Virus record (IMG/VR): IMGVR_UViG_3300030329_005813
Location: 32,001 to 96,000 of that record
Strand: one strand, 5' to 3'
DNA from: a virus
Length of the DNA stretch: 64,000 nucleotides
Below, in pieces: positions 1 through 33,259 of the stretch. A program made the translations under genes and the position numbers. Every line of letters begins with the position of its first letter. The first letter of the stretch is position 1. Under the pieces are notes generated by a model, which was not told where the DNA came from, searched no databases, and saw only the letters and a program-made list of their open reading frames with translations.

Positions 1-517
1 GAGTAACGCGGTTCATCGTCTCGTTAACGATGGCTTCCTCGTCCAGGACGTCCAAGCCAGGAATCTCGTCGTCTTCAACGGCCTCGGGGCCTTCATCGCC
101 GGGAAGCTCCGCCTCGGGCTCATCCTCGATTGTGGCCTCGCCCTCAACACCGTAGGGAGCGAGGGCCGCGAGCATAGCGTCAGCAGCAGCCTCAACAGCC
201 TGCTCCAGCGCGGAGACGGCCTCGGCAGGGAGTGCATCCTCAGCGGGGGCGTCGTCGGCATCCAAGTCATCCAAGACCGGCTCGTCGGCAGGCTCTTCCA
301 TGGCGTCGTCATGCATCTCCTCTTCCATGCCGTAATCGCCCTCGGCAACGACTTCATCGCCCTCGGCAACCACCTCGTCGCTTTCAGCCACGACTTCTTC
401 CTCTTCCAACGTAGCGGAATAGGTCTCGTTAATAAAATTGTCGGTCAAGCCCTCAATATTGGCATACTTCATAAACTGACGGACAGTTGCTTCACTTAAA
501 AGGTCTTTCTTGCTCAT
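1..517 (-). CDS. Highly acidic probable head/internal protein, runs off the left window edge
   Basis: Not in the ORF track. ATG at 515-517 with a CAGGAGA RBS, translating MSKKDLLSEATVRQFMKYANIEGLTDNFINETY...EEEEVVAESDEVVAEGD.... Open to position 1. Late-type motif at about 551. Confidence 0.75.
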   Translation of the reverse strand, partial: MSKKDLLSEATVRQFMKYANIEGLTDNFINETYSATLEEEEVVAESDEVVAEGDEVVAEGDYGMEEEMHDDAMEEPADEPVLDDLDADDAPAEDALPAEAVSALEQAVEAAADAMLAALAPYGVEGEATIEDEPEAELPGDEGPEAVEDDEIPGLDVLDEEAIVNETMNRVT

Positions 518-4040: not shown

Positions 4041-4069
4041 AATATAGCATACCTACTTGTACGTGTCAA
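4041..4069 (-). promoter_or_regulatory. Sigma70-type promoter
   Basis: TTGACA-17 bp-TATATT with a TG extension. Confidence 0.75.
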
Positions 4070-8100: not shown

Positions 8101-8579
8101 TCATAGCTCAACGAGATCAACTTAAACAGGTTGTTCAAGCCAGTCTGGTTCTGGGCTAGGAGGACAAGGTGCCTTCGGCGATTTAGGATATTTCTTGCGG
8201 CTTTTTTAGACTCGCCCTCATCCTCGACCGTTGTGCCCTTGGTTTCTGCTTTTTTGGCAGCCCGTGCAGCTTTCTTGTCCTGCATCACGCGATCATAATC
8301 TTCACGCCACTCCGCGATGGAGGGTACAAAGTAAGCTTCCACCCCAAAAATAGGCTTGAAGTCCTTGCCTTCAGCCTGCATCTTCTTGGCGTGCAAAACT
8401 TGCCAAGCTAGACCATTCATATTTCCATGATCCGTAAGAGCTAGCGCAGTCGCACCATTTTCATAGGCAAAATCCATATGCTCTTGTGGATAGCCTAGGC
8501 CATCAAAGATAGAGCCTGCAACGCTGTGTGCGTGCAGACCCACGAATGGAATATCTTTTTTATTCATTGTATCCCCCAA
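5127..8579 (-). CDS. dnaE: DNA polymerase III alpha subunit (family C)
   Basis: PHP domain LHAHS/TDHG, GRGSAAGSLVAY, PDIDYD, RHAGGV, KYDVLGL, YGFNKSHA. No intein seen. Confidence 0.97.
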   Translation of the reverse strand: MGDTMNKKDIPFVGLHAHSVAGSIFDGLGYPQEHMDFAYENGATALALTDHGNMNGLAWQVLHAKKMQAEGKDFKPIFGVEAYFVPSIAEWREDYDRVMQDKKAARAAKKAETKGTTVEDEGESKKAARNILNRRRHLVLLAQNQTGLNNLFKLISLSYEPENFYRFPRLDYDLLAKHSEGVIAASACLGGVYAGCYWENREEGPEAVLEAMRDVTRRMQEVFGDRWYGELQWNNIPEQHELNKYIIQVCEEFGVEMISTADSHYPNPDAWKDRELYKRLGWLGRGRPSWADNGELPVDVDEIGYELYPKNGEQMWESYKKYSAQCETEYDDKLVLDSITTTHRIAHERIERFMPDNTVRLPDFVIPVGETADSALRKFCFEGLRAKNLHENEEYTSRLEHELSVISDRGFSKYFLTMNEITKVANEVMLTGPGRGSAAGSLVAYALDITQVDPLKYGLQFARFLRSDATDYPDIDYDVAEPMKLKELLVEKWGSNTVAPISNWNTLQLKSLIKDISKLYDIPFHEVNAVTGKMMFEATTAAKKKHGIKAGVYTPTFEEVKEFSTTLRSFLAKYPNVATHVDALYGQVRSCSRHAGGVVIAENLDHHMPLISSKDVRQTPWSEGQNVRHLEPMGFIKYDVLGLSTLRMIDGAIRHILKREKGIKEPTFADVKDYYNQMLHPDVIDFNDQEIYKNIFQSGKWAGTFQFTESGAQNLCKQVVPTNIIDISAITSIFRPGPLSANVDKDFVKTRKSPGMVRYINDTHREVTEETNGFLIFQEQIAMLAHKLGKDLSLDEANMLRKVLTKKGTGKAAKVKMALYEKFMQGCLELHGMTQKEAQRLWDTFEYFSGYGFNKSHAVSYSMISFQCAWLLNYYPECWMAAFLDKEPETRKEKAIAIAKQFGFEIEPLNINTSGRVWEISKDGKRLIQPLTSIKGLGDAAIDQIFIGRPFDSVESFLFNEEIRYSKLNKKSLDVLVRSGTLTPLMDNRFTGLKHFWSAVAVDRPRKLKNLEANIELYAPEGDFTEEEKIQSLVDLTGQFPIDKVINSEIMTKLSAMAIPPISEYDPDLQVVWLIPRKIVPKKTKNGKDYLIVEATDSNSSNIRVRCWGVDIRGGDNIQINKPYMIRPQYSLEWGFSTRGRAYKTWKALA

Positions 8580-8584
8580 TTTAT

Positions 8585-8613
8585 ATATTACACGCTTTTG
8601 ATTGCGTTGTCAA
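8585..8613 (-). promoter_or_regulatory. Sigma70-type promoter for dnaE
   Basis: TTGACA-17 bp-TAATAT. Confidence 0.55.
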
Positions 8614-8773
8614 CAATTTTCATAACATTATCGACTGTCTCACGATGTTCACCGGGAAAAGTAAGGTTCATGATGTCCACTCGAATACGTCCGAGCGCTC
8701 GCTCAAGATTTGTTTCGCGCAACTTAGTTTCTTCAAGCTTTTTAAATAGCTCCATTTTAGTTATTGTCGGCAT
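8588..8773 (-). CDS. Hypothetical protein
   Basis: 61-aa ORF with RBS; TTGACA/TATAAT promoter at 8929-8956 inside the upstream gene. Confidence 0.6.
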   Translation of the reverse strand: MPTITKMELFKKLEETKLRETNLERALGRIRVDIMNLTFPGEHRETVDNVMKIVDNAIKSV

Positions 8774-9614
8774 TATTTACTCCTATTGGGTTAAGTTCTC
8801 TATAAGATATGACTAATTTTCCAGGGTGCCTCATCTCGCTCTTTTCCTCAGATCCGAGATATTTGCAATATGAGTCCCAGCTATCAATTTGATAGAACCA
8901 GGGTGTCTCTAACTTTCCCTGCTCTCTTATTATAACACAATCAAATGTTTTGTCAAGAGAAAATTTATTCTTGAAGTATGCTTTTTCATCTTCAAGCTCT
9001 TGGCCTAATAATAGGCTGTTTTCTATTTTGTAAAATTCTTTTTGTATCGTCTTAAGCTGCTTTAAATTAAAGGTAAAACCTAAATAATTTCCTGTTCCAA
9101 CTGATGCGTCTTGATAGGTTAGAAAAAAATTATCTTGCTTATTGATCTCCAGACGATGGGGCCGCAATATGTCCGGAGGGTATACCGCGTATGGGAAGGC
9201 CACATAAAAGACCGATGGGGCCAACCATTTGCTTATGGAGCTGCCAATCTTGTTGGCAACAGAAGCGCCCCTCACGATTGACCAAGATATACAATGTTCT
9301 TTATTGTCGTGCTCGTCGCGACACGGAACATAAAAAATAGGAATCAAAGAACGCTTGTTTGAAGGAAATCTACACTTCCTACCTAACCAAACTGGGTCTT
9401 GTATGTAGTCCCCTAGCCTGTGTCTTACTAATGGTGTAACGTTGTCGTTGGCTACGATCCATATTGTCTTACAGCCGGCATATGCACACTCTAGCACGGC
9501 CCTTTCGATAGCATAATAATTTGGCGCGATGGGCATTAAACAATCGTGCCAATCTAAGTTATAGTCCATAGGCTCTGTAACAATGGGAACTACTCCCACT
9601 AAATGACGATTCAT
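8757..9614 (-). CDS. Divergent nucleotidyltransferase (GT-A/NTP_transferase)-like protein
   Basis: GVVP...CLMPI...IERAVLECAYAGCKTIWIV matches the N-terminal pattern of sugar-phosphate nucleotidyltransferases but lacks GxGTR. Confidence 0.5.
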   Translation of the reverse strand: MNRHLVGVVPIVTEPMDYNLDWHDCLMPIAPNYYAIERAVLECAYAGCKTIWIVANDNVTPLVRHRLGDYIQDPVWLGRKCRFPSNKRSLIPIFYVPCRDEHDNKEHCISWSIVRGASVANKIGSSISKWLAPSVFYVAFPYAVYPPDILRPHRLEINKQDNFFLTYQDASVGTGNYLGFTFNLKQLKTIQKEFYKIENSLLLGQELEDEKAYFKNKFSLDKTFDCVIIREQGKLETPWFYQIDSWDSYCKYLGSEEKSEMRHPGKLVISYRELNPIGVNNADNN

Positions 9615-10473: not shown

Positions 10474-10623
10474 TTATGCTTTGCCCTGACCACGATACTT
10501 TTTTCTGTAGCCCTTGGGCACTGTACCGCCAGAGTTCTTTGATTTATACTTAGTATTCTTGCTGTTTCCAATACTTGTTTTTTTAGCCCTCCCATCGGGA
10601 GACCAACCACTTTTAGCTGCCAT
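10474..10623 (-). CDS. Small basic protein (49 aa) ending KKYRGQGKA
   Basis: Translated by hand: MAAKSGWSPDGRAKKTSIGNSKNTKYKSKNSGGTVPKGYRKKYRGQGKA. Coupled to the glutaredoxin stop and missed by the ORF track. Confidence 0.75.
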   Translation of the reverse strand: MAAKSGWSPDGRAKKTSIGNSKNTKYKSKNSGGTVPKGYRKKYRGQGKA

Positions 10624-10943
10624 TATAAACTCCTTCGAAGCCTAGAGACTTCCTCTCTCAAGATTAAAACTTCTTCGCGAATTGCTTTAAGGCGGAAATT
10701 TGAGGATTCGCTTAATTTGACCAAATCATCGCATCCACCAATAAATTCATCTCCCAAAAAGATAACTGGGACTGTTTTTTGGCCCGTGTCTTCAATGATC
10801 ATTTCGCGAAGATTAAGATCTTTCGTGACATCAATTGAGTGTAGGCTGCACTTGAGTTCATTTAAAATCACATCTTTTGCCTTATCACAAAAGGGACATC
10901 CGTCCTTAATGTACATCTTAAACGCCGTTCTATTATCTAACAT
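10623..10943 (-). CDS. Glutaredoxin
   Basis: CPFC, TVPVIF, IGGCDD. Confidence 0.92.
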   Translation of the reverse strand: MLDNRTAFKMYIKDGCPFCDKAKDVILNELKCSLHSIDVTKDLNLREMIIEDTGQKTVPVIFLGDEFIGGCDDLVKLSESSNFRLKAIREEVLILREEVSRLRRSL

Positions 10944-12333: not shown

Positions 12334-12545
12334 TCTTCGCTCTCCTCACGAAACACGCCGTTTTCTTCTACCAATACCTTAACATCATATCTCTCAAGAA
12401 ACAAGTCCCACATCTCTTCTCCAACGACAGCACACTCTTTTCCAAAGTAGCCCTTTAGCCACTGGTGTCTCTCCCACGAGTTTGGTAGAGGGACAAAAAT
12501 AGAGTTTACTTCATTGCTAGTTCTAATGAACTTGCACTTTTTCAT
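12330..12545 (-). CDS. Hypothetical cassette protein (ends ESEE)
   Basis: Bounded by junction repeats. Confidence 0.7.
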   Translation of the reverse strand: MKKCKFIRTSNEVNSIFVPLPNSWERHQWLKGYFGKECAVVGEEMWDLFLERYDVKVLVEENGVFREESEE

Positions 12546-12772
12546 TCTTCGCTCTCCACAAGTTCAACATCCTCTAAATAGTCTTCGCTTGTATCGCCTG
12601 TCAAGAAGAATGGATTTCCCTCTGGGATTTCGTTGTCCCACTTTATGACGGCATAGAAGAAGCCTTTAGGCTCCTCTTCAATCGGGTGAATCTCCGTAAT
12701 AGTTCCTGTCCCTCTATTAAACTCGCTGTCAAGGTAGAAAAGACGATCACGAACTCTATCACCGACTTTCAT
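12542..12772 (-). CDS. Hypothetical SH3/KOW-like cassette protein (ends ESEE)
   Basis: True start MKVGDRV at 12772 within the repeat; MKVGDRV...G.IT...IKW pattern. Confidence 0.65.
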   Translation of the reverse strand: MKVGDRVRDRLFYLDSEFNRGTGTITEIHPIEEEPKGFFYAVIKWDNEIPEGNPFFLTGDTSEDYLEDVELVESEE

Positions 12773-13463
12773 TCTTCGCTCTCCGATAAGCACCAACCGC
12801 AACAGGCCATAACTCTTCTGCGATCTCCAAGCAAGCCTCAGCAACCTTTTGTATTTCCCATTGCGCCCCTTCGTGCGTGCGGAGGTCAATGAACTTTAGA
12901 AGATTGTTTAGGTTGACTGTGCCATAATACTCGGTGTACATATTTTGAGGCAGAACGCCTCTTGCTTGCTCTCGGCAAACGCCTGCTTCGATGAGGCTGT
13001 TAAATAATTCCAAAGAAATCCTATTATGTCCTAGGAATGCTTCAGAAGCAGCAACCTTATGTGCTCCAGCAAGAAACAAATCTGGATCAATCAACTCTTC
13101 GACGTTGCTTGCCTGTCGGTTGGACTTGTGTTGAGTACGGAATGCTTCGGGCTCGTAGAACTGGATGTTTACGTCAGTATACCGACGAGAAATTTCATTA
13201 TAGCTCCAAGTCCGATGACGATGATGCTGAGAACGAACGAAGAGGGGGACAGTAAAGCGGAAAGTAATAGTATTATGCTCAAACGTAGACGTGTGCCGAT
13301 GCTTAACCAAATAGCTGATAAGTTTTTTATCCTTTTCATCTAATTCTTCCTTGTGCTTCCCAAAACTGACACGAGCACTATTAACAATAGTAAGATCGTC
13401 ACCCATGTATTGCACGAGATCAACTGTTCCAATTCCATCTCCATATAGCTCGATTGATTTCAT
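12759..13463 (-). CDS. thyX: Flavin-dependent thymidylate synthase
   Basis: ARVS, HTSTFEH, RHRTWSYNEISRRY, EQARGVLP, LR...AQWEI. Confidence 0.97.
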   Translation of the reverse strand: MKSIELYGDGIGTVDLVQYMGDDLTIVNSARVSFGKHKEELDEKDKKLISYLVKHRHTSTFEHNTITFRFTVPLFVRSQHHRHRTWSYNEISRRYTDVNIQFYEPEAFRTQHKSNRQASNVEELIDPDLFLAGAHKVAASEAFLGHNRISLELFNSLIEAGVCREQARGVLPQNMYTEYYGTVNLNNLLKFIDLRTHEGAQWEIQKVAEACLEIAEELWPVAVGAYRRAKNESR

Positions 13464-14468
13464 TTATTCGCCCCATAGAGCTGAACAAATAGTGTCGGTT
13501 ACAATAGCCGTAACCTGATACGGGTCACAATTTGCATTTGGTCTCCGATCTTCAATATAGCCTACTCCCTCGATAGCGACTTGCCACGGAATACGAACTG
13601 AAGCGCCTCGGTCTGAAACGCCCCACTTAAACTCCTTATAGGAACAAGTTTCGTGCAGACCGGTTAAACGTTCTTCAATTTTATCTCCATATACGTGTAT
13701 ATGTTCAGAAGCTTTTACGGCTAGTGCTCTTGCTGCCTGCTCGTAAACTCCCTTTTCAGTACGCATCTCAACGGTAGAATAATTAGTGTGACAGCCGGCG
13801 CCGTTCCAATCTCCCTTAACGGGCTTCGGATCCCAACTAACTGATACGCCATACTTTTCGGCTACGCGCTCCAGTAAGTATCGAGCCAGCCACAAATGAT
13901 CAGCAGCCTTAACTGGTCCTAGAGGACCAACCTGAAACTCCCATTGACCCGGCATTACTTCGGCATTGATACCCGAGATGGCCAGTCCGGCTTGAAGACA
14001 TAATTCAAGATGTTCCTCGACAATTTGCCGACCAAATGCATTGGAGGCACCAACGCTACAATAATACTGTCCTTGCGGAGATGGATATCCAGTTTCTGGG
14101 AATCCTAATGGTCGACCGTCCTTAAACAACGTGTATTCCTGCTCTAGGCCGAACCACGATTCGTGTTTTTCGTACTTTTTGGCCAATTCAACACATTGAT
14201 GCCTAGTGTTTGACTTGTGTGGCGTCATGTCAGGGTTAAGTACCTCGCACAATACCAACGTAGAGTTGGGGCCACGGAGCGGGTCTGGAGTAACCGATAA
14301 GACTGGTTTTAAAACACAATCAGAGCTAGAGCCCTCGGCTTGGTTAGTAGAAGAGCCATCAAACCCCCACAGTGATAAATCATCGTTATTACCGATTACT
14401 TTTGTTTTGCTTCTTAATTGTGGTGTCGGCTCTGTGCCATCAATCCAAATATATTCTGCTAATTTCAT
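13464..14468 (-). CDS. glnII: Glutamine synthetase type II (GlnII/eukaryotic-like)
   Basis: AEYIWIDG, LRSKT, WGFDGSST, GLEQEY, NAEVMPGQWEFQVGP, DWNGAGCH, RLTGLHET, RGASVRIP, YIEDRRP. Confidence 0.95.
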   Translation of the reverse strand: MKLAEYIWIDGTEPTPQLRSKTKVIGNNDDLSLWGFDGSSTNQAEGSSSDCVLKPVLSVTPDPLRGPNSTLVLCEVLNPDMTPHKSNTRHQCVELAKKYEKHESWFGLEQEYTLFKDGRPLGFPETGYPSPQGQYYCSVGASNAFGRQIVEEHLELCLQAGLAISGINAEVMPGQWEFQVGPLGPVKAADHLWLARYLLERVAEKYGVSVSWDPKPVKGDWNGAGCHTNYSTVEMRTEKGVYEQAARALAVKASEHIHVYGDKIEERLTGLHETCSYKEFKWGVSDRGASVRIPWQVAIEGVGYIEDRRPNANCDPYQVTAIVTDTICSALWGE

Positions 14469-14851: not shown

Positions 14852-15118
14852 TCACGCCTCAGGAGGAACAGGAAAATGTATTAGATTTTCATAGACGGAA
14901 TCTTCTTCGGGCTCGTCGATATTAAAAGAATCCGTAACGGCTGATATTTTATTTCTTAGTTGGCCTAAGGCTATAATCATATCCATAGTCTGGTCTACGG
15001 TCCACTCTTCTGGTAGATCACCAGTCCTAAGCCAGCGTTTCCAAGTTACTATCGCCATTTCAATACAGCCTTCCAACATATGCAAGTCAGAAAGTCCAAG
15101 ATCCATTGATTTTTTCAA
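14852..15118 (-). CDS. Hypothetical protein
   Basis: 88-aa ORF in operon. Confidence 0.55.
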   Translation of the reverse strand: MKKSMDLGLSDLHMLEGCIEMAIVTWKRWLRTGDLPEEWTVDQTMDMIIALGQLRNKISAVTDSFNIDEPEEDSVYENLIHFPVPPEA

Positions 15119-15399
15119 TTTTCTTCCCTCATAGACGCCATAATATGATTTCGCTCGATCAGGCTAAAAGAATGTGATTCTACTTGTATGTCCCTAATAA
15201 TATGTGTTGGGATAACTAATAGCTCATCTTTCTTGAAGCTGGCCGCCTCATTAGTGGAATCCCGAATCACTTTGACAACTGAATAAGGACTCTCTTTTGC
15301 TTTGAAATCTTCCGGAAGCAAAACCATAGATTCTTTCTTTTCTTCTGGAGCCTTAACAAGCTCTACTAAAATCCAATTATTTTCTGGCTGTATTCTCAC
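15115..15399 (-). CDS. GroES-like co-chaperonin
   Basis: RIQP.N.WILVE...VLLP...LI.RNHIMA. GTG start with GGAGA RBS; promoter at 15419-15447. Confidence 0.7.
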   Translation of the reverse strand: MRIQPENNWILVELVKAPEEKKESMVLLPEDFKAKESPYSVVKVIRDSTNEAASFKKDELLVIPTHIIRDIQVESHSFSLIERNHIMASMREEN

Positions 15400-15418
15400 T
15401 GTCTCTCCATTTGTATAT

Positions 15419-15447
15419 AATATAACACACTCATATCCACAAGTCAA
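15419..15447 (-). promoter_or_regulatory. Sigma70-type promoter
   Basis: TTGACT-17 bp-TATATT. Confidence 0.7.
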
Positions 15448-16089: not shown

Positions 16090-17949
16090 TTAGGTAAGTT
16101 CACAACTTCCGTTGCCTCCACAAGCTATTTCGCCCTGAAGATCGGTGTTGTCTTCGACTTCAATGACGTTTGTAAGATCGACATCAACAAGTGTTTTCAT
16201 CAACTCTTCATATTCTTCCTTAGTGCAGTCAGAAAAGGGAGCTTGGATATACGATCCTCCGTCGTAGGGAAGCACAGATAAACCATTGTAATGTTTACGA
16301 TTTTCCCACATCCACTCGCCCGTCTCTTCCCACTCGTCTTCTCGAATACTAACGGTAGCACTAACGTTATGCGTGTTTTGTCCTTTGCTATGGCCGGGTC
16401 GAATCCACTCCATACTTACTTTTTTAACGCGCTCAAGCATTGAAATAGCACTTTCTGAGCGTGTAATAGCGTTTTGTGGAGATTTTTGTGGCGCTGATAT
16501 AACAGCCGTGTCGTGAGGGCGGAAATAATCGTCCTCGACCAACTCCGGATGAAACTCCGCTAAATAACCGTAAATAGCTTCGTTTTTCCCCACTCGGATT
16601 CGTCGAATGTAGTAGTCATTGTGCCACGCGTGAATTCCAGACGAAGTACCTAGTGTTAAGGAGGTTGTTCCAGCCGGCTTGACGCAAGTGCAGCGAGCAG
16701 CCGGATTAATTCCTAACAATTTAGCGACTCGTGCATTTTCTTCTTTAACGACCTTGGCAGCTGCCTTCATATCTAGATTTAAAACTTTACCTGAGGCAAT
16801 ACCGGTCATAGAAACACCGATTAAAGCATCTTTTTCTGTTGTACGTTGCCAGACTGGACGAAGATAGTGAAAATCTGTGTAAGAAGCTTGCAAAGTACCA
16901 ATAAAGGCAGCTGCACGAACTCGATTTTCATATTCTTCCTGCGTATCGATGTCTGAAACATTAACTTCGGTTAAATTACAGAACTGAAACGGGCGCAGAG
17001 CAATTTCACAACACGGGTTTGTACCCCAGTCCTTATCATATGTAAAATAGAACCCAGGCTCCCCTGCACCAGAAGCTTTTACGCGGCTCCAAAGGTCAAG
17101 AAAAAACTCTTTTGTGACCATATGTCGCATTAAAGCAACTGAGTTGTTTGCTCGGCCACGTTGGGGGTTTTCCTCCCACCAGGAACCAGCTTTGGCGGCG
17201 ATCATTTCATCGTTATCAGCAGAAAAAAGACTAATAAGAGCAGCGCGACGAATTCCGCCGGCTAAAACAGCGTCAGCTATATAACAAACCATATCATGCA
17301 CTTCAATCGGACGTAGCTTATCGCCATTTTCCTTAGACTCAAGTATACCCTCAAGCTTAACTAAGCACTCTTTAAGAGGCTGCGGGCCTGGGGCCTTACC
17401 ACCAGATGTTACTAATCTGGCTCCCTTAGGTCTAATGTCCGAGAAATCGAAACGAAGCTTAGAAGTACCACGAAAATAAGAAGTTACAAGCGCCTTTACA
17501 GCGTCGGCCCACCCTTCAATAGAGTCACCAATAAGATATCGGTAGGTTCTCTTGCCATTTGGTTTATTAATCTCTGGCAATTTATCAACGTGGTGATTTT
17601 GTACCGAATAACCAACCCCAGTGCCACCAAGCAGCAAAAACATAATCTCACCAAAAGCACGGGTGTCGTCAATGGGCATATAGGCGCAGTTAAAGATTCG
17701 GTTGGGTGCAACTTCGATGGGTTTGCCGCCGAACTGCATCGATCTCATAGAAGGAAGTACTTTTTTCTGATGTACATATTCATATGCTTCTTCGATTTCG
17801 TCTTTTAGTTCCGGATATCTTTTAATATGCATAACTTTATTTCTATCGGCCAGTTCCGTAAATGATTCACGGCGATAAGCCTCTTTCAAGTATCTCGCAT
17901 ATTTCATATGTACTGTAATATCTGATAAAATACTAGCTGCTAATTCCAT
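16090..17949 (-). CDS. nrdJ: Class II (adenosylcobalamin-dependent) ribonucleotide reductase
   Basis: PSMRS, FNC, GGTGVG, GGIRRAA, GEPG, TNPCCEI, FCNLTEVN, KPAGTTS, C-terminal ACGGNGSC; no nrdB in window. Confidence 0.93.
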   Translation of the reverse strand: MELAASILSDITVHMKYARYLKEAYRRESFTELADRNKVMHIKRYPELKDEIEEAYEYVHQKKVLPSMRSMQFGGKPIEVAPNRIFNCAYMPIDDTRAFGEIMFLLLGGTGVGYSVQNHHVDKLPEINKPNGKRTYRYLIGDSIEGWADAVKALVTSYFRGTSKLRFDFSDIRPKGARLVTSGGKAPGPQPLKECLVKLEGILESKENGDKLRPIEVHDMVCYIADAVLAGGIRRAALISLFSADNDEMIAAKAGSWWEENPQRGRANNSVALMRHMVTKEFFLDLWSRVKASGAGEPGFYFTYDKDWGTNPCCEIALRPFQFCNLTEVNVSDIDTQEEYENRVRAAAFIGTLQASYTDFHYLRPVWQRTTEKDALIGVSMTGIASGKVLNLDMKAAAKVVKEENARVAKLLGINPAARCTCVKPAGTTSLTLGTSSGIHAWHNDYYIRRIRVGKNEAIYGYLAEFHPELVEDDYFRPHDTAVISAPQKSPQNAITRSESAISMLERVKKVSMEWIRPGHSKGQNTHNVSATVSIREDEWEETGEWMWENRKHYNGLSVLPYDGGSYIQAPFSDCTKEEYEELMKTLVDVDLTNVIEVEDNTDLQGEIACGGNGSCELT

Positions 17950-19341: not shown

Positions 19342-19370
19342 AATATAGCCTATTTTATTGCGCTTGTCAA
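19342..19370 (-). promoter_or_regulatory. Sigma70-type promoter
   Basis: TTGACA-17 bp-TATATT. Confidence 0.7.
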
Positions 19371-20335
19371 GCAGCTTCTTTATTTTTCTCAATCAGTCCA
19401 CGAAGCATCGCCATAAGCTCGGACCAATCATAAGAACCAAAACCGTGCTCAACAGAAGTGCGCTTAAGCTCGGTTGCATTTAGCTCAAATTCAAAATTAT
19501 CGAGCGCAAAGTTAATTTTTTGGCGCCCTTGAACTGAAATGCTAGGAGGGGTAAGATTCATTACTTTGTAGTTTGTCTCTACCGTATTCCAGCCCTCCAC
19601 AATCCTTTCATAGAATTTTAAATTACTGTCAATCTTGGCGCAATGGTCGTAAACCTTATCAAGTGTGTGCATCTTGTCTTCACACAAGAAGTCCAGACGC
19701 TTTGATATGGTCGCCAGTCCGGCTCCACGGATACCTACGAGATTATCGGACTTATCCCCGGCAATAGCTCGGGCAATCACGAAGTTTTCGGGTGAAATGC
19801 CGTATTCTTCAATAACAGTATTTTTGGTCCAAGCTTTCTTCTGGATAGGGCGGTACAGTACCGTCTCTTCATCGAGAAGCTGTAAAAAATCTTTATCCGA
19901 AGAGACAATTACCTTTTGCCAGCCGGCATACTTGGGCGACTGGACGACCATTGAAATAATATCATCTGCCTCGGTCCTATCTAATACTAGCTGCATAATC
20001 GGCATTTCGTTTAGCATTTCCATAAGGATACGCTGTTGCCAGATCATATTCTCTTTCTCAGATTGCTCCGACATGCCCTCGATCTTGTAGTTTTTTCGCA
20101 ATGGCTTTCGACCTTGCTTATACTCCTTGACCACTGTACGGCGCTTTTGAGAGCCACCAGAGCCATCCCAACAGATAATCACTCGGTCTGGCTTGGCTTC
20201 CCTCATAAGCTTCTTAATGGAGTTAATAAAGCCAACAGCGCCACCGATTGGGTTGCCATTGCTTGAGATCATTGGGTTAACAATGTAGTTCCTAATAAAC
20301 ATATTAAGAGCGTCAACTACTAATAATCGCCTCAT
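19367..20335 (-). CDS. 5'-3' exonuclease / T4 RNase H-like flap nuclease
   Basis: LVVDALN, EYKQGR, EADDII, SSDKDFLQL, GDKSDN..GI.G.G. Confidence 0.93.
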   Translation of the reverse strand: MRRLLVVDALNMFIRNYIVNPMISSNGNPIGGAVGFINSIKKLMREAKPDRVIICWDGSGGSQKRRTVVKEYKQGRKPLRKNYKIEGMSEQSEKENMIWQQRILMEMLNEMPIMQLVLDRTEADDIISMVVQSPKYAGWQKVIVSSDKDFLQLLDEETVLYRPIQKKAWTKNTVIEEYGISPENFVIARAIAGDKSDNLVGIRGAGLATISKRLDFLCEDKMHTLDKVYDHCAKIDSNLKFYERIVEGWNTVETNYKVMNLTPPSISVQGRQKINFALDNFEFELNATELKRTSVEHGFGSYDWSELMAMLRGLIEKNKEAA

Positions 20336-20802
20336 TGGCTCACTCCCCACCAATTTGGCACATTGCCGTTTTTCCACTTAGCAATACGCGCCTTGGCACC
20401 AATATAATAGTTTCTATATGATTCCACTGGATCTTCTGTTTTGAATTCGTTTGGCATCGCAAGACGAAATGGTGTTTGGCCAATGGTAGGCAAGTTAATG
20501 TTTAAGTTTTCGGCCCACTCAGTGACAGCTTGTGATTTATGAATCCTTCCATATCGCTTTGTATATTCTTCACACAAGGCGCGAGAATGTTTAACAAGCC
20601 ACTGCCAGTTTTCATAAGACTCGCCAGCCCACAACGTGCAAGGATGCTTAGGATGGGCCGTGCGATAAGGCGCATCAAGACCTTGCTTGCGTGCTACCGT
20701 ACACAACATCTGGTTGGATTCCAGAATCATTTTAACTACGTGCTTATCGCACATCATCTGTGCTGCAACGACCGGATCGTCGTGCAAAACAAAAATATTC
20801 AT
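20332..20802 (-). CDS. Pyrimidine-dimer DNA glycosylase-like protein (DenV/Pyr_excise family)
   Basis: MNIFVL...DKHVVKMILE..QML, HPCTLW, EY..RYG..H, YRNYY. Confidence 0.85.
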   Translation of the reverse strand: MNIFVLHDDPVVAAQMMCDKHVVKMILESNQMLCTVARKQGLDAPYRTAHPKHPCTLWAGESYENWQWLVKHSRALCEEYTKRYGRIHKSQAVTEWAENLNINLPTIGQTPFRLAMPNEFKTEDPVESYRNYYIGAKARIAKWKNGNVPNWWGVSQ

Positions 20803-20823
20803 ACTTTATCCCCCTGTGCTTAT

Positions 20824-20852
20824 AATATAGCACGTATTCTTAATCTAGTCAA
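20824..20852 (-). promoter_or_regulatory. Sigma70-type promoter
   Basis: TTGACT-17 bp-TATATT with a TG extension. Confidence 0.7.
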
Positions 20853-20872
20853 CAGAAAAGATGTCAAGAAAC

Positions 20873-22114
20873 CTAAAACTGCTCAGCTTCGGTTGATTCT
20901 GTTAATGCTAGCGTCGATGACTCACCGCCGGTAATCACTTCTTTAACAGCGTCAAAATAGCCTGTTCCGACCTCTCTCTGGTGTTTTGTAGCGGTATACC
21001 CAAGGCTTTCAGCCTCAAACTCACGCTGCTGGAGGTCAACATAGGCGGTCATCCCCTCATCGCGATAACCAGACGCCAGCTTGAACATACTGTGATTTAA
21101 AGCGTGAAACCCGGCCAAAGTTACAAACTGAAACTTATAGCCCATTTTTCCAAGTTCTTTCTGAAAGATCGCAATTGTTTCGTCATCTAGGTGCTTCTTC
21201 CAATTAAATGATGGAGAGCAGTTATAAGCCAGCAGCTTACCTGGATACTTTGCGTGAATTGCGTCGGCAAACTGCCTAGCTTCGTCCAAGTTTGGCTTCG
21301 AGGTTTCACACCAGATTAGGTCTGCATACGGGGCATACTGTAGGCCACGATTAATGGCCATCTCAATGCCGCCCGTAATCTTATAAAAACCTTCAGCTGT
21401 CCGGACATCATCAGTAATAAATTTGCGATCTTCTTCATCGATATCGGTCGTCAACAACTTAGCGCTGTTTGCGTCAGTTCGTGCAATTAAGACGGTTGGA
21501 ACACGCATAACGTCTGCTGCCAAGCGAGCAGCCTTAAGATTACGAATAAATTGTGATCCTGGAATTAGTACTTTGCCGCCTAAGTGACCACATTTCTTTT
21601 CTGAGCTTAGCTGGTCTTCAAAATGAACTCCCGCCGCTCCAGCTTCAATCATAGCTCTCATAAGCTCGTAAGCGTTAAGTGGGCCACCAAAGCCAGCTTC
21701 GGCGTCGGCAACGATTGGCACCATCCAGTCCTTTGAACTATTCCCTTCAACACTATCAATTTGGTCGGCCCTGTGCAAAGCCTGATTAATCCTTTTTACA
21801 ACGTGAGGCACACTATTCGCTGGATACAAGCTCTGATCTGGGTACATATGGCCAGATAGGTTGGCATCTGCTGCCACTTGCCAGCCGGACAAGTAGATTG
21901 CTTTAAGCCCAGCTTTAACTTGTTGAACTGCTTGATTACCAGTTAGAGCGCCAAGGGCGATGACGGGATCTGGCTCGTGAATAGCATCCCATAGCTTATT
22001 TGCGCCTTGGATTGCCAAAGAGTGATAAATATACACACTTCCGCGCAACCTAGATACATCTTGATTAGTCCAATCTCTTTTAATTCCCTTCCAACGAAAA
22101 GTCTTGTCGCTCAT
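20873..22114 (-). CDS. aceA: Isocitrate lyase
   Basis: [32 protein letters not shown], catalytic [35 protein letters not shown]. Confidence 0.97.
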
Positions 22115-22151
22115 ATTAATTTCCTCTTTATTAAAAAATAGGCTTAAAAGT

Positions 22152-22199
22152 AAAACCCCTCAACATGATTAATATACCATGTTGAGGGGCCGTTGTCAA
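22152..22199 (-). promoter_or_regulatory. Overlapping intrinsic terminator and sigma70 promoter upstream of aceA
   Basis: 12-bp perfect inverted repeat CCCCTCAACATG/CATGTTGAGGGG followed by TTTT; TTGACA (22194-22199)-17 bp-TATATT (22171-22176) overlaps it. Confidence 0.75.
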
Positions 22200-22209
22200 G
22201 TTAAAAAAT

Positions 22210-22500
22210 TTAGCGACGTACTCTAATTCGATGTCCACTTCTAACCACCACAGTTGGTCGAGGCCGAACAACAACGGGTGGCCGGACAACAACCGGCGGT
22301 CGAATAACAACGGGTGGCCGGATAATAACCGAAGGACGAACGTATGTATACACGTTCGGCTGAGCCACCGGGATGTAACGAACCTGCGGGTGCGTATACA
22401 CTGTCACAACTGGCGGGCGCGTTACTTGCGCCACAACCGTTGGGTGCGCCTGTGCTTGGAGACACCCAAACAACATTAAAATGCTAGCAAAAATACTCAT
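22210..22500 (-). CDS. Secreted Pro/Val/Arg-rich repeat protein
   Basis: Signal peptide; tandem RPPVV(I/V) repeats. Confidence 0.65.
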   Translation of the reverse strand: MSIFASILMLFGCLQAQAHPTVVAQVTRPPVVTVYTHPQVRYIPVAQPNVYTYVRPSVIIRPPVVIRPPVVVRPPVVVRPRPTVVVRSGHRIRVRR

Positions 22501-22542: not shown

Positions 22543-23667
22543 TTATTCATCTTCGCCATCAATATCATAAAATTCTTTGGCGTCGACTTCTTTCTTCTCG
22601 AATTTAAGAATAACTTCCTGTTCCATAAGTTGCAAAATGCGATTACGAAACTTGTCATCTTGCAACTTACTAATCCAAGTGGCAGACTGAAACTTTTCTT
22701 CTGAGCCATCTTCATACTTAAGCGTAAACCATGCACCGGCATTTGTAATGTGCTTAGAACTCTTAATAGCCTCTAACCAAGATTCTTCATCTTGAATCTT
22801 CACATCATCGCCTGCCCATAAGATCTTAAATGTGCATTCTCGCGCATCAGAGCCAAACCTTGACTTCTTAATCTTAGCCTTAACCTCAGTGCCAACCCTA
22901 AAGCCCTTATCGTCGTAAATGAAGCTAGCTTTTCCTCGACGGGCGGTAAGCCAGATGCGAAGCGAATAAGCGTAGATTGCAGCCTTTCCACCAGGGGTAA
23001 AATAGGGCTCCAAACGGGCTTCTGCGATATTGCTTGTAATGTTGGTCTTAAGTTGGTTTAGGATAAGCAAGGTTGATTGTGAGTTGGCAATCGGCACAGT
23101 TAACTTAGAAAACCCTTTTGACAAAATACGAGGCTTAACCGCCATACTGGATAAAGGATTGAAATCACCATCGATATCCGAAATAGCAGGCGTCATAGCC
23201 AGCGAATCCCAGATAAAAAGCATTTGGTTTTCATTGCCGGCTAATAACTCCTCAATCGTTTCTAGAACAAACTCGACCGATTGAGCCTGGATATAAAGTA
23301 GATTTTCAATATCACAGCCCGCATTTGCCAAAAACTCTGGGTCTACAGCAGACTCAGAGTCAAAATATACCACATCAATCCCCATTTTCTGAGCATTGCC
23401 AGCAACCTGAGCCGCCATATATGACTTACCAGACGCTGAAAGACCAGCAATCTCGCTGATCTTACCCACTGGAATCCCAGCATACCTGCCTCGACAAATA
23501 ATAGAGTTTAACCAACGAGATCCGGTTGGGATCCACTGCTTAACTTCTGTAGGATTTGAATCCCCTAGGTCGTGTGCCACAGTTACGCCGGCCTTTTTAT
23601 TAACAATCTTTCGCATATCAGCGATAGAAAGTTTTCCAGCTTTAGGCTTTTTTGATGTACGTGGCAT
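22543..23667 (-). CDS. uvsX: RecA/UvsX recombinase
   Basis: IPTGS, GLSASGKS, FDSE, IWDSL, LNQ, TPGG.A..YAYSLRI. Confidence 0.93.
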   Translation of the reverse strand: MPRTSKKPKAGKLSIADMRKIVNKKAGVTVAHDLGDSNPTEVKQWIPTGSRWLNSIICRGRYAGIPVGKISEIAGLSASGKSYMAAQVAGNAQKMGIDVVYFDSESAVDPEFLANAGCDIENLLYIQAQSVEFVLETIEELLAGNENQMLFIWDSLAMTPAISDIDGDFNPLSSMAVKPRILSKGFSKLTVPIANSQSTLLILNQLKTNITSNIAEARLEPYFTPGGKAAIYAYSLRIWLTARRGKASFIYDDKGFRVGTEVKAKIKKSRFGSDARECTFKILWAGDDVKIQDEESWLEAIKSSKHITNAGAWFTLKYEDGSEEKFQSATWISKLQDDKFRNRILQLMEQEVILKFEKKEVDAKEFYDIDGEDE

Positions 23668-28948: not shown

Positions 28949-31900
28949 TTAGTCTGCTGTCAGTGTTGTTGGAGGGTCTTCTGGGCAATCTGTTACATTA
29001 TCTTCATTGGCTGCCGTTATTCTACATCCATCGCCAGATGATTCGTACCGGGCCTTTACGACTGTCTTAAACATTCCAGATTCTATATAGCTCTCAACTC
29101 TTGTAATAATGTGATATCCGCCTAAACCCATAATATTAGATAGACTACTTTTTCTATGAGGCATGCCCAAGGCACCGTGAGATCCTAAACCAAAAGGATT
29201 TAAATATAAATAACTACCTGGATAGAAAAGAGTATTGCCTACCATATCGATTGATAGCTCATACACATCCGAAAGCTGTTGAATTGGGTCGAAGGTTCCT
29301 GCACCCTCTACTCGGGCCTCTCGTATATACGGGGCATCTGTTTTTGAAAAGTTTACCCTCTTAAGTACGCCGGTGCTGCTTCCAATATTTAAATGATGTA
29401 TACCTCTTTCCCTGTCAACCTCGGACGGTTTTTGACCTTCTATATTAGAATTTGGTGCCATACCAGGATAATACAAGCCCGATGGGCCTTGAGCATAGAT
29501 TACAATATATTGATAATAATTTTTTATAGATTTTTCATACGGCGTTTTTGCAAAAATTGGGTTTCGATATGAAACCGCATTTAAATTTAATCGTGCTGTC
29601 GTGCTTTGCTCAGCCTCCTCACCCTCTTCCAAGCCGGCGGTAACAGATTTATTTACGATTGGGTCTTTTCCATCCTCTGTTGCAGGGCCATCAATAAAAG
29701 CAGTCCTAACAATGGCTCTTTGTTTCTGAGTTTCGCCAAAACAATCTGCTCCCAAAGCAGCATAAACTAAGTCGTTAACCATATCTTTTATAAATGTTGC
29801 AAAATTATAAGTATCTTTCTGTTTTAAGATAACTTTTCTATGAAAAAAATCAACAAACAATCGAACGGATATTGGTACGTCTGCCAAGTTAGCTCTAACT
29901 GTGGCTTCTGTTTGAGGATCTTTATACTCAAAAGGCCCCAATAAAACTCTTAGATTTTCAACCTCCCCCTTCTTAAATGCATATTTGTCTTTAAGTGTTT
30001 GATTGTCGGAGTATTTTGAGTTTTCTGCCGTATTATTAAAAACATAACTCGCGATTATATCCACCAAATCACCCAAGTAAAAAAAGTTAATTAGCAGAGT
30101 AGATGGGTCACCAGGATCATATGAAGATAAAGATGTATAATCTTGCAACGAAGAAGCTACTTCACTAGCTTGCGCTGGTACTTGAGACGGTCCAAAGCCA
30201 ATCTTTTCTAGCACACGAGGGGCATATTCAAGCCAACTATTTGCAGCTGCTGTTTTTTCTTGAGAATCTGTTATATAATTGTCTACCTCCCCTACAGGAT
30301 CTCCCTCATATCTATTAATGTCCGACACGTTTACTAACCCTTCATCGCTAGCGGGGCGACGTGCATCGCTGAAAAGACTCAATTCTTCTTGGGTTATAGG
30401 CAATGAATGTATTAATTTTTTTCCTGCATTGACACCACCGGGTGTTGTAGTCGAGGTGCGATAGCCGGTAGTTACCTTTTCACTCTCAAAACCTTTATAA
30501 ATTGTTTCTGGATTCAACAGGGTATCTAACAGGAGAGTACGAGACCTTATCCTCAATTGATCTTTTAAAAGAATCATTTTATCTTTGGTTTTTTTAATTG
30601 TTTCTTGCTTGTAAAAACTATCTTCGCATGAACCATTCTTTTTAAATTCATCTAATATATTTTGAAGCGCGGCAAGATCTTGAAAGGTCTGTGTATCAGC
30701 TGACCCCATTCCCCCGCCGGATAACAGAATATTTGACTTTGGACTTACTAAAATACCATCCATTCGACCTCTATATTCAATTGATAATTCAAAAGTTCCG
30801 TCCTCATTGATTGAAAACTCATGATTTTGTAAAGTCAAAAACAAAGGCACTTGATTAAATCTTAGTGAGTCTATTAAAGCCGGATCGGCGCCTCGGTAAT
30901 CGGACCAGCCAACCACTGCTTTAATCTCATAAAATGACGAATCGTACTGACTACTACCGGGGCCACAAGTTTCTCCGTCCGGTTGATCCTGCTCAATATT
31001 GCCTGAGGCCTCTTTTAAGCCCCTATCGGAACGAAAATTGGGCGCCACAATTAAGTCTAAATAAGAATATGTTTCAGCTGTTTCGCCCAATATTGTTTGT
31101 CGATTTCTGATAAGCTCGTCCATACTTTGAAAGTACAACACTAGCTTGGCTGTAATATCATTTTCGATAGTGTCTGGATTTGTTGATATGTAGGCCCAAT
31201 CGAATGATTTTATGCCGACTCCCATTCTTCCCTGGGCGCCCCCGGGTCTTACCTTTGGATCAAGTACGGAAGTATCGGAATCAGACGCCCAATCTCTATC
31301 GGCCTTCGCTTTAGTAATTGTATGATTATAAAATTTAAAAGGTATTTCTCCTTTAACTTCGCCTTCATCGTTATAAATAATTTTATATAGATTTAATTTC
31401 GGCACCAATTCGGCCAATTGGCTTGTTTTTATGTCTAAAAGGCTTTCCGTACCGGGTCTCATTTTTAATTTTGGGATGACTTCAGATGGGTTACCGTCGA
31501 TTAAATGTGTTTTGTTATATGTAAATCGGGGAATAGGATTATTATCTCCAGCAATACTTGCAGGCACCATAGAATTTACATGCAGTGCAGCCAAGATAGT
31601 AAAGTTCCACATCAAATAACATTGCTCTGCCAATCTTGTTCTAGCTGCTAAAGCTTCTGGATCGTCTTGCTCATCTTGGCGATTTTCATCTTCACTGGCT
31701 TTGGCTTGCTGTCTTAGTGTTGCTTGCTTAACGGCCAAATCGTTTGCTTCATCTAAACTTTGATCTTCTAATATAACGCCTGCTGCTATATCTACACTAA
31801 CAGCGGCCTGTTCGGAGCGCGTCAGAAGACCAAATCTTTCCCTGTCTAAAGGGTCATATCCTAACGTTTCGGCCACAGGAGCAAGCCCGGTGGATTCGGC

Positions 31901-32077
31901 AATAAAAGCGCCGGCGGCCTTTACATATTCACCCTCTCGATAATAATTGTCTGAGACCGAGGCCGAATCTAAAATTAACGCATCTGTTGATTCAACGGTA
32001 ATCGCTTCGTTTACTTCTCTGGGCGTTTCTGATTTGTCTTCAGTGCCAGCGACAATATTTTCGTCCTCTTTTGCCAT
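28949..32077 (-). CDS. Baseplate hub / tail protein
   Basis: 1042 aa; C-terminal ELSIDMVGNTLFYPG...GGYHIITRVES pattern typical of gp27-like hubs; follows the LysM gene. Confidence 0.6.
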   Translation of the reverse strand: MAKEDENIVAGTEDKSETPREVNEAITVESTDALILDSASVSDNYYREGEYVKAAGAFIAESTGLAPVAETLGYDPLDRERFGLLTRSEQAAVSVDIAAGVILEDQSLDEANDLAVKQATLRQQAKASEDENRQDEQDDPEALAARTRLAEQCYLMWNFTILAALHVNSMVPASIAGDNNPIPRFTYNKTHLIDGNPSEVIPKLKMRPGTESLLDIKTSQLAELVPKLNLYKIIYNDEGEVKGEIPFKFYNHTITKAKADRDWASDSDTSVLDPKVRPGGAQGRMGVGIKSFDWAYISTNPDTIENDITAKLVLYFQSMDELIRNRQTILGETAETYSYLDLIVAPNFRSDRGLKEASGNIEQDQPDGETCGPGSSQYDSSFYEIKAVVGWSDYRGADPALIDSLRFNQVPLFLTLQNHEFSINEDGTFELSIEYRGRMDGILVSPKSNILLSGGGMGSADTQTFQDLAALQNILDEFKKNGSCEDSFYKQETIKKTKDKMILLKDQLRIRSRTLLLDTLLNPETIYKGFESEKVTTGYRTSTTTPGGVNAGKKLIHSLPITQEELSLFSDARRPASDEGLVNVSDINRYEGDPVGEVDNYITDSQEKTAAANSWLEYAPRVLEKIGFGPSQVPAQASEVASSLQDYTSLSSYDPGDPSTLLINFFYLGDLVDIIASYVFNNTAENSKYSDNQTLKDKYAFKKGEVENLRVLLGPFEYKDPQTEATVRANLADVPISVRLFVDFFHRKVILKQKDTYNFATFIKDMVNDLVYAALGADCFGETQKQRAIVRTAFIDGPATEDGKDPIVNKSVTAGLEEGEEAEQSTTARLNLNAVSYRNPIFAKTPYEKSIKNYYQYIVIYAQGPSGLYYPGMAPNSNIEGQKPSEVDRERGIHHLNIGSSTGVLKRVNFSKTDAPYIREARVEGAGTFDPIQQLSDVYELSIDMVGNTLFYPGSYLYLNPFGLGSHGALGMPHRKSSLSNIMGLGGYHIITRVESYIESGMFKTVVKARYESSGDGCRITAANEDNVTDCPEDPPTTLTAD

Positions 32078-32088
32078 TTAAATATACC

Positions 32089-32430
32089 TTAATAATACCT
32101 TAGATATTCCAAAACAGTTTGTAGAGGTTTTGGTATAATAATTGTGTCTCCAGTACTCAGCATATTTTCAATCGGTTTTTGATTATACCACGCTATAATC
32201 CACCAATATTTTGCTTCACCATAGTGTTCCGAGGCTAGTTTCCAATAGCGATCTCCAGTTTTCCACGTATGTTTTGTACGAACTAAATTTGTGCGTTCTA
32301 AGGCAGCTGGGTGTCTTAGTCTGGGAGTTTTATATTGATCTATGTGTTTCCGGTCTCTTTTTTCTAGAAACTCTTTATAGATCTTTGAAAAGTTTCTTAC
32401 TACTCTTCTACCTGTATATCTGGATGGCAT
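32089..32430 (-). CDS. LysM-like baseplate wedge protein
   Basis: GDRYWKLA.EHYG...YWWIIA.YN...GD.I.IP. Confidence 0.8.
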   Translation of the reverse strand: MPSRYTGRRVVRNFSKIYKEFLEKRDRKHIDQYKTPRLRHPAALERTNLVRTKHTWKTGDRYWKLASEHYGEAKYWWIIAWYNQKPIENMLSTGDTIIIPKPLQTVLEYLRYY

Positions 32431-32440
32431 ACTATACTTC

Positions 32441-33259
32441 CTATACGCTACCTAAAGTGCTAAATTTATCGGCATTATCATCTGCATCGGTGGTTGTGGT
32501 GGCTGGTTCGGGAGCTTGATCATCATTAATTTTAGGTGTGGCATATGGCCAAGCATTGCCTGTGCCGTCTGACCATTGAAGTTCGTCTCCGTCTTCAACA
32601 TCGGTCCAGCCCATCGTATGTTCGTGCAAAACATCAAAAGTAAAATTAATATTAATTGTTTTTGGGTACAAAGTGCCAGGAAGATCATAGAATCCGTCAT
32701 CTAGGACTGGAGTGAAGCTAAACCCGTTCATCTTTCCTAGTAATCCGCCTCCTCCCGGGCCTCCGTTTCTTATTAGGTTTGCAAATCTAATTCTCAGCAA
32801 AGGAGCACGAGCAATTGTTAAAGCGTTGTCACTTTCATTACCAGCGTAATAAGGATATAGTTTTCTTGCTAAGATGTTTATTTTGGTCAAGTTGCAGCGA
32901 GCACAATCTAAATCAAATGCCGGTATTGAAAGCGCCACTGCAATTTGTCTGGTAGTGTTTTGAAAAGTATATATATCATCCATTCTGCCATAGACAGGTT
33001 CGCTATTCCAATTGGATGTAAAGCTGTCTGAATAATCCGTTAAGATGGCCTTAAATTTCCAGGTTAGACCGGATGGAAGGTGCTCAATATATAAATAATA
33101 GTCTTTAGCATTAGCATACGCTGTAGTCTGGTCCGTTGCTCCCTGGGTGGCTGAAGCTTTACGTGAGTTTGCAAACTGCGGAAAAAGATCTTCGTACTCT
33201 TCATCGACAGTACGCTCAACCGCTTCAGCGTTAAGAGCTTTTCCCGCTCCTACAGTCAT
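32441..33259 (-). CDS. Tail tube initiator / baseplate protein
   Basis: YSDSF...W....YGRMD.I..F.NT.R, P.LRIRFANL; located between TMP and LysM genes. Confidence 0.65.
   Translation of the reverse strand: MTVGAGKALNAEAVERTVDEEYEDLFPQFANSRKASATQGATDQTTAYANAKDYYLYIEHLPSGLTWKFKAILTDYSDSFTSNWNSEPVYGRMDDIYTFQNTTRQIAVALSIPAFDLDCARCNLTKINILARKLYPYYAGNESDNALTIARAPLLRIRFANLIRNGGPGGGGLLGKMNGFSFTPVLDDGFYDLPGTLYPKTININFTFDVLHEHTMGWTDVEDGDELQWSDGTGNAWPYATPKINDDQAPEPATTTTDADDNADKFSTLGSV

Follow-up and report, generated by a model that had tools for sequence, protein, structure and literature searches.

We analysed a 64,000-nucleotide stretch of viral DNA, hereafter the window, which spans positions 32,001 to 96,000 of the IMG/VR virus record IMGVR_UViG_3300030329_005813 (G000) and encodes an isocitrate lyase (ICL; gene aceA) in the midst of phage replication genes. 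The explanation that best fits the whole locus, and that we consider quite probable, is that of a competent phage ICL, gained laterally without the malate synthase gene aceB and inserted behind a hairpin of the PeSL type. The gene occupies positions 20873..22114 (413 aa, stop codon TAG included); its product is called P0001. Coordinates are those of the window, and the features lie on its minus strand, unless stated otherwise; genome coordinates equal window coordinates plus 32000. This gene is the one open reading frame (ORF) in the interval picked out by an earlier sequence-only reading of the window: the end of that interval, 22199, takes in the promoter, and the coding sequence itself stops at 22114.

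Judged by its sequence, P0001 is an isocitrate lyase (AceA, EC 4.1.3.1), predicted to be catalytically competent. Enzymes of this family are homotetramers that split isocitrate into succinate and glyoxylate. It matches the Pfam family ICL (PF00463, E 9e-98) and scores well above the cut-offs of two NCBIfam equivalog models: 752 bits against 562 for NF011645, with residues 5-413 of 413 covered, and 574 bits against 276 for TIGR01346. The solved ICLs 6lrp and 7cmx align with it end to end, up to the last residue (E ~1e-195). All nine Mg2+/substrate-binding motifs, FVTLAGFH among them, are found and the C-terminal end is intact; the roles of single motif residues are putative, being assigned by analogy with the M. 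tuberculosis ICL1 structure. The catalytic loop KKCGH falls at residues 173-177, and of the 187 columns invariant among 33 cellular ICLs, 181 are retained. A look-up in the ESM Atlas returned the label 'isocitrate lyase' only. The description of a full-length AceA with the KKCGH loop, given by the sequence-only reading, is upheld by the equivalog scores, the end-to-end alignment and the position of the loop.

Models of PrpB, on the other hand, stay far under threshold for P0001 (about 100 bits versus about 350; for TIGR02317, 106 bits versus 354). The protein also departs from PrpB in its loop, KKCGH instead of KRCGH, and in its length, 413 aa versus about 295 aa. The motif KKCGH is known to mark ICL and KRCGH to mark PrpB (PMC11982470). 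The N-terminus of P0001 begins some 12-20 residues later than in cellular ICLs, a trait common to other viral ICLs. None of the 12 differences from the 97% allele P0007 falls in the invariant columns, and only 3 of the 34 differences from the 92%-identical allele P0008 do, against 45% expected by chance (P 5e-6). As the differences between alleles avoid invariant columns, the ICL is under purifying selection in this lineage.

No malate synthase was detected in a six-frame search with PF01274 of the whole 172,361-bp genome, window included. In agreement, tblastn of three phage aceB proteins against the genome gave no match better than E 0.2, and none near the ICL. The absence that the sequence-only reading had reported for the window is thus confirmed and extends genome-wide. 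Among 38 other ICL-bearing viral contigs, 17 encode malate synthase A directly upstream of the ICL (equivalog TIGR01344), with gaps between aceB and aceA of -8 to +16 nt in these aceBA contigs.

A survey of viral databases, proposed by the same reading, located ICL relatives on 38 IMG/VR contigs, and a second viral scan with P0012 returned the same contigs. Against cultured and deposited phages, megablast gave no match to the ICL; in tblastn, Phage C48C1 was the sole genuine phage match, the hits to Salmonella, Escherichia and Acinetobacter 'phages' being rejected as bacterial contigs or fragments. No PHROG family matched P0001 either. With no PHROG match and a single deposited phage homologue, the gene is rare among cultured or deposited phages, while well known from environmental ones. 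ICL relatives in metagenomes form more than 100 clusters at 75-100% identity, mostly of 408-417 aa and some of them from Tara; a metagenome scan with P0001 gave only relatives of at most 79% identity, mostly cellular-looking, and returned none of the 83-100% alleles.

Phage C48C1 (L121) belongs, together with L023-L033, to a second, independent viral ICL clade with 57-63% identity to P0001. No aceB was found in this clade, the complete C48C1 genome included. In that genome (OQ984149.1, complete at 156 kb and filed under Kyanoviridae) the ICL at 7995-9236 is annotated as 'hypothetical protein'.

An AceA phylogeny, which the sequence-only reading had suggested for tracing the donor or host, was built with FastTree (172 rows) and with an IQ-TREE mixture model (40 rows). 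In the ICL trees, the window ICL nests inside a phage clade (support 99) together with L003-L009, L034, L134 and L135, and aceB stands directly upstream in every one of these members with enough upstream sequence. The nearest named cellular ICL comes from a 'Deltaproteobacteria' metagenome-assembled genome (MAG), itself with aceBA, followed by the ICLs of Bacillota. The DnaB tree places G000 elsewhere: with L022 and L018 (support 100, 62-66% identity) and far from the L003 group (38-43%). The two proteins thus disagree on the closest phage, as L022 shares 66% of DnaB and 69% of ICL with G000, versus 40% and 79% for L003. This conflict between the nesting in the aceBA clade and the DnaB backbone implies that the ICL gene moved between phage lineages. 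On the simplest reading, aceA was gained laterally and by itself, with a different marine phage lineage as the source.

A similar conflict was observed on the contig L016/L228 (IMGVR_UViG_3300012952_003931), whose DnaB groups with L003 and whose aceBA-linked ICL groups with L015, L017 and L022. The whole aceBA operon thus also seems mobile between phage lineages.

The insertion site could be mapped with an empty-site relative. Scanning for exact matches to the 34-nt stem-loop upstream of the ICL gave one other viral contig, L240, which is about 82-83% identical to the genome in nucleotides over gp32, uvsX, exo and dnaB. L240 has the identical hairpin-promoter, then a short Shine-Dalgarno sequence (SD), then the exonuclease gene. 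A segment of about 1.8 kb (20336..22137), comprising the ICL leader, the ICL, a second promoter and denV, is absent at the same site in L240. In blastn, L240 7082-7174 corresponds to 54226-54138 and L240 from 7187 onward to 52335 onward, both in genome coordinates. An exact-match scan of IMG/VR, the genome's own record excepted, found no other contig with the ICL-denV junction.

For mapping the slot more widely, we used 80 UvsX relatives in IMG/VR with 69-92% identity. The RecA/UvsX-like recombinase (22543..23667) is the upstream anchor of this variable slot, and the interval between uvsX and exo ranges from 5 to 2533 nt among the relatives; none of the 80 has an ICL in it. In at least 17 relatives, a promoter, a hairpin and a T-run stand directly ahead of exo, with quite different stem sequences. 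The presence of the same hairpin-promoter ahead of exo in the relatives and in L240 identifies it as a resident control element of the exo-dnaB unit. Judging from these alignments, the ICL was inserted just downstream of the resident hairpin-promoter and did not bring it along.

The hairpin itself is conserved as a structure. The six closest versions show four stem pairs with compensatory changes, and in an alignment of the six sequences with the named structure 94.8% of cells are paired, versus at most 51% in controls with slid partners. RNAalifold returned no structure for 17 hairpin-promoters, whose differing stems are out of register in the MAFFT alignment.

The part of the missing segment that follows the ICL encodes a DenV-like pyrimidine-dimer glycosylase (20332..20802), recognised by Pfam Pyr_excise (36 bits versus a cut-off of 23) and by phrog_624 (E 6.5e-60). 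No denV was found in the close backbone relatives. Next comes a 5'-3' exonuclease of the RNase H/FEN-like type (19367..20335), which the hairpin-promoter drives in the relatives. Its N-terminus MRRLLVVDALNMF aligns with MKRLLVIDALNMF of L240, which sets the start codon at the ATG 20335; the automatic call of 336 aa (19367-20377) begins too early. This ATG overlaps the stop codon of denV (ATGA), and the two genes look translationally coupled. A short TAAGC repeat flanks the ICL cassette on either side, at about 22146 and 20822, and L240 retains TTAAGCC, then an SD resembling the one before denV. The repeat is compatible with recombination between two promoter elements and is too short as proof.

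The backbone relative L231 (IMGVR_UViG_3300025122_000009) carries other cargo. At 365-1114, in the uvsX-exo slot, it encodes a DUF3108 protein, and at 12338-13336, just downstream of aceBA and thyX, an S-adenosylmethionine (SAM) synthetase, MetK. In G000, a gene for a GlnII-type glutamine synthetase (13464-14468; NCBIfam NF041605, 562 bits versus a cut-off of 500) lies between a Cpn10-like gene and thyX, the slot that holds aceBA in L231. The comparison of cargo indicates that the same two slots are filled differently in different relatives.

Upstream of the ICL, the promoter, the hairpin and the T-run form a single PeSL-type composite element (22144..22199), with the AT-rich AAATTTTTTAAC just upstream. 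Its -35 box TTGACA (22199..22194) is separated by a 17-nt spacer from the -10 box TATATT (22176..22171), which is preceded by TG; 11 of the 12 positions agree with the consensus. The -10 box lies inside the loop of a 16-bp hairpin (22191..22154) with a fold of -27.2 kcal/mol (z -6.2), and the T-run (22153..22144) comes after it. The 5' leader of the ICL (22115..22140), with the SD AAGAGGA (22128..22122) 8 nt before the ATG, is specific to the insertion and has no L240 counterpart.

This promoter type recurs in the genome. A genome-wide scan with the pattern TTGAC[AT]-N16-18-TA[TC]A[AT]T gave 25 matches versus 1.2 expected; the coding strand holds 24 of the 25, most of them some 22 nt ahead of start codons, and several have small hairpins around the -10 box. 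The TTGAC-type consensus is the phage's predicted early promoter, read by the host sigma70. Since the transcript would start about 7 nt past the -10 box, inside the 3' arm, a new transcript cannot form the hairpin. The element is predicted to halt incoming transcripts and to launch new ones, as its architecture suggests.

The 3' side of the gene is organised differently. The spacer between ICL and denV (20803..20872) contains TTGACA at 20867..20862, the SD GGGGGA and a second promoter, TTGACT-17-TATATT with TG (20852..20824), with a small hairpin GTGCTATATTATAAGCAC (5-bp stem) around its -10 box. No terminator was found in this spacer after the ICL. With only a second promoter past the ICL, transcripts should continue into denV, exo and dnaB, and the unit is insulated on its 5' side only. 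The insulated transcription unit announced by the sequence-only reading therefore finds no support in that form. Of its claim that the gene has its own sigma70 promoter fused to a terminator hairpin, the promoter embedded in a hairpin stands; the word 'own' does not, as the promoter drives the exonuclease gene in relatives.

We now propose how the locus arose and how it would work. Another marine phage lineage would have supplied aceA alone. The gene, together with denV or beside it, would have entered the hypervariable slot between uvsX and exo, immediately downstream of the conserved composite PeSL-type terminator/promoter hairpin. The hairpin would stop the transcripts arriving from uvsX, and the host sigma70 RNA polymerase would start at the embedded promoter, within the 3' arm of the stem, so that the ICL would be the first gene of an early unit that extends through denV, exo and dnaB. 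During infection, isocitrate would be split by the enzyme into succinate and glyoxylate, and the host malate synthase, if present, would complete the glyoxylate shunt. Carbon would thereby be kept from the two CO2-releasing steps of the tricarboxylic acid (TCA) cycle, and NADH production would be lowered. The resulting C4 acids could lead to oxaloacetate and aspartate for nucleotide synthesis.

Such a C4 supply toward aspartate and nucleotides is reasonable because the phage carries PurA, an IMP dehydrogenase (IMPDH)/GMP reductase (GMPR), GlnII, a class II ribonucleotide reductase (RNR), ThyX and dUTPase. In the window these are an IMPDH/GMP-reductase family protein (919-2046), dUTPase (2209-2730), a short PurA of 338 aa (4066-5082), ThyX (12759-13463) and the class II RNR (16090-17949), alongside a glutaredoxin (10623-10943) and the Cpn10-like protein (15115-15447). 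The glyoxylate shunt avoids both the loss of CO2 and the production of reducing equivalents, and marine heterotrophs induce it when Fe is limiting (PMC11069385).

Could the ICL be a bacterial gene, brought in by host contamination or joined to phage DNA by the assembler? ICL genes are typical of cells, and this one shares 72-76% identity with Bacillota ICLs and is about 6 points richer in GC than the genome mean (46.5% versus 40.7%). Yet among the phage's own genes this GC content ranks at the 88th percentile, and the codon usage is inside their range. The gene is tightly packed among phage neighbours on the same strand: RecA/UvsX-like and gp32-like genes upstream, and the DenV-like glycosylase, 5'-3' exonuclease, DnaB helicase and class II RNR downstream. 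A phage-consensus promoter and an SD stand on both of its sides, and both flanks of the insertion match the sister phage L240 up to the junctions. Moreover, six contigs, drawn from NCBI, JGI, Logan, ENA and Tara, carry the identical protein, the ICL nests among those of many viral contigs with phage neighbours, and its short N-terminus is common to viral ICLs and not to cellular ones. A chimera or host contamination is, on these sequence data, not tenable and effectively refuted; the sequence-only reading had already set host contamination aside, from the replication genes around the locus.

Vertical inheritance is a more serious competitor, although we still find it improbable. It would have G000 descend from an aceBA-bearing ancestor, with aceB deleted and aceA relocated and no transfer between phages. 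In its favour, aceBA is present downstream of dnaB in two backbone relatives, L022 and L018, and the lineage has therefore had the operon. Against this, the G000 ICL is 79% identical to those of phages with a distant backbone versus 68-69% to the L022 and L018 ICLs, and these two groups fall in separate, well-supported clades. Forcing G000 together with L022/L018 costs 184 log-likelihood units, and the approximately unbiased (AU) test on the ICL data rejects this joining (p-AU 4.7e-97). No ICL was found on the contigs of 47 closer backbone relatives, two of them at least 90% complete, and no remnant of aceB was found in the genome. Several points nevertheless weigh against the lateral gain that we prefer and against the role that we assign to it. 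The sampling of cellular ICLs in the trees is biased, as it came from a pattern-based search and consists mostly of Bacillota and one 'Deltaproteobacteria' MAG. The group for the AU test was picked from backbone identities, yet by the time of the test the first tree was already known. An unsampled donor lineage with aceA only is possible, the closest alleles, P0008-P0018 (83-92% identity), having been compared as protein sequences. Lastly, the role in the shunt is drawn from general knowledge of that pathway and assumes a malate synthase in the host.

Another rival is a function outside the shunt, which we regard as unlikely while giving it more credit than vertical descent. The enzyme could act as a 2-methylisocitrate lyase, provide glyoxylate for glycine and purines or serve as a source of succinate, malate synthase then being dispensable. 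In favour of this, aceB is missing here as well as in the complete phage C48C1 and its clade, of 98 huge phages with an ICL, 76 have no malate synthase (bioRxiv 10.1101/2025.02.27.640493), bacterial AceA may have a secondary methylisocitrate lyase activity (PMC11982470), and the phage invests in purine synthesis genes. The sequence of P0001 is, however, that of a canonical ICL, with KKCGH and not KRCGH and far under the PrpB cut-offs. A search of the genome for a phage-encoded glyoxylate-using enzyme, either a class V aminotransferase or a 2-hydroxyacid dehydrogenase, gave nothing convincing: there is no class V aminotransferase, and the sole 2-hydroxyacid dehydrogenase was rejected, being generic, placed in a sugar cluster and under every equivalog cut-off. 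If the host has a malate synthase, the simple explanation, action in the shunt, would suffice.

We also entertain, tentatively and as something that may well prove wrong, a broader idea: phages may repeatedly retain aceA and discard aceB, with isocitrate cleavage itself as the benefit. It comes from three facts taken together, namely that G000 has aceA only within an aceBA clade, that the C48C1 clade has aceA only, and that most huge phages with an ICL have no malate synthase. Candidate gains from cleavage alone could be a supply of succinate and glyoxylate, less NADH and CO2, and iron sparing. G000 and its ICL-less sister phages with an otherwise matching site form a natural near-isogenic pair for this idea, and they also offer an example, beyond the classical T-even phages, of a full-size metabolic gene captured by a PeSL-type element.

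The virus that hosts the ICL is an uncultured marine, distant T4-like myovirus. Its record is a 172,361-bp genome, estimated as 95% complete, and 184 of its 199 predicted genes are on the minus strand. Beyond the ICL region it encodes a DNA polymerase, and the window also contains its genes for tail sheath, gp23-like capsid, portal and terminase; the nearest capsid proteins are those of Flavobacterium phage immuto, Microcystis phage Mel-JY01 and Rhodothermus phage RM378.

Between uvsX and the hairpin, which is its predicted transcript end, lies a 96-aa ORF (22210..22500) with a signal-peptide-like or lipobox-like start MSIFASILMLFGCLQAQA and tandem RPPVV(V/I) repeats. It has no Pfam or PHROG matches, and it was rejected as a remnant of aceB. 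Its counterpart in L240 is a 143-aa ORF sharing the C-terminal end; with a different ORF in the same place, this gene is itself variable.

Two further features of the genome were noted. A single ORF of 1032 aa at 60633-63731 (minus strand) matches phrog_100 (SbcD-like) in its N-terminal part and phrog_77 (SbcC-like) in its C-terminal part, so that a gp47/gp46-type pair appears to be fused there. The regions G000:C1:4338-12259 and 31897-32517 (genome coordinates; the latter reaches window positions 1-517) have a GC content at third codon positions (GC3) of 55-66%, versus a genome median of 34%, and nowhere else in the genome is codon usage so deviant. This high-GC3 run may be a recent acquisition.

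Virus-encoded genes of central carbon metabolism change carbon handling in infected ocean bacteria, and it is useful to learn which pieces of a pathway a phage needs. The locus reveals no new kind of enzyme or system. It does offer a clear-cut example of a glyoxylate-shunt gene that a phage carries apart from its partner, for which the donor clade, the insertion site and an empty-site relative are identified, and it supports the view that metabolic genes of marine T4-like phages move as single-gene cassettes at promoter/terminator hairpins. P0001 and its control element are concrete material for enzyme and reporter assays.

Phage ICLs as such are not new. As early as 2013, Pacific Ocean viromes were reported to contain aceA as well as aceB (PMC4053976). 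A Tara virus with an aceBA operon, whose complete genome of 179 kb has structural genes of the T4-like type, followed in 2017 (PMC5332604), ICL has been reported in viruses assigned to Pelagibacter and Woeseiales (PMC10721903), and 98 huge phages with ICL, only 22 of them with malate synthase, were described in 2025 (bioRxiv 10.1101/2025.02.27.640493). With these precedents, the label of an unusual auxiliary metabolic gene given by the sequence-only reading has to be dropped.

Among cellular enzymes, the bacterial AceA/ICL1 proteins (6lrp, 7cmx, 1f61, 1igw) resemble P0001 in a full-length alignment at about 60-75% identity, the KKCGH loop, the Mg/substrate motifs and the conserved C-terminus. 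The phage ICL differs in its lack of the N-terminal helix region and of aceB, aceK or iclR neighbours. The closest viral parallels are TARA_ERS478052_N000008 (Nishimura et al. 2017, PMC5332604) and the IMG/VR aceBA contigs (L003-L009, L022, L034 and others), which are likewise marine T4-like genomes, of about 170-270 kb, with ICLs of the same clade (69-79% identity), a short N-terminus and a location in a region of replication and nucleotide metabolism. In those genomes aceA directly follows malate synthase A in a long operon, whereas G000 has no aceB and its aceA lies in the uvsX-exo slot, as the first gene behind a promoter. The ICLs of huge phages (10.1101/2025.02.27.640493) and of the Pelagibacter and Woeseiales viruses (PMC10721903) are similar in being mostly without malate synthase and sometimes accompanied by glutamine synthetase; compared with the huge phages, by description only, G000 is under the 200-kb 'huge' limit with its 172 kb.

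As for the control element, it resembles the PeSL cassettes of the T4-type phages RB49/phi1, T4/PST and KVP40/nt-1 (Arbiol 2010, PMC2839356; Comeau 2014, PMC4122927). The shared traits are a consensus sigma70 promoter with an AT-rich stretch upstream of the -35 box, a stable stem-loop over the spacer and the -10 box, followed by an SD and a start codon, one clear indel exactly at the element, and promoter elements on both sides of the inserted gene. Here, in contrast, the phage comes from a distant group of marine T4-like viruses, a metabolic enzyme of 413 aa takes the place of a small ORFan as cargo, the stem of the downstream element is only 5 bp long, and the promoter and terminator roles are predicted ones. 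What is new is the descent of the ICL from a clade of aceBA phages with aceB missing, the conflict with the backbone tree, and the insertion, mapped with the help of an empty-site relative to a point behind a conserved PeSL-type element.

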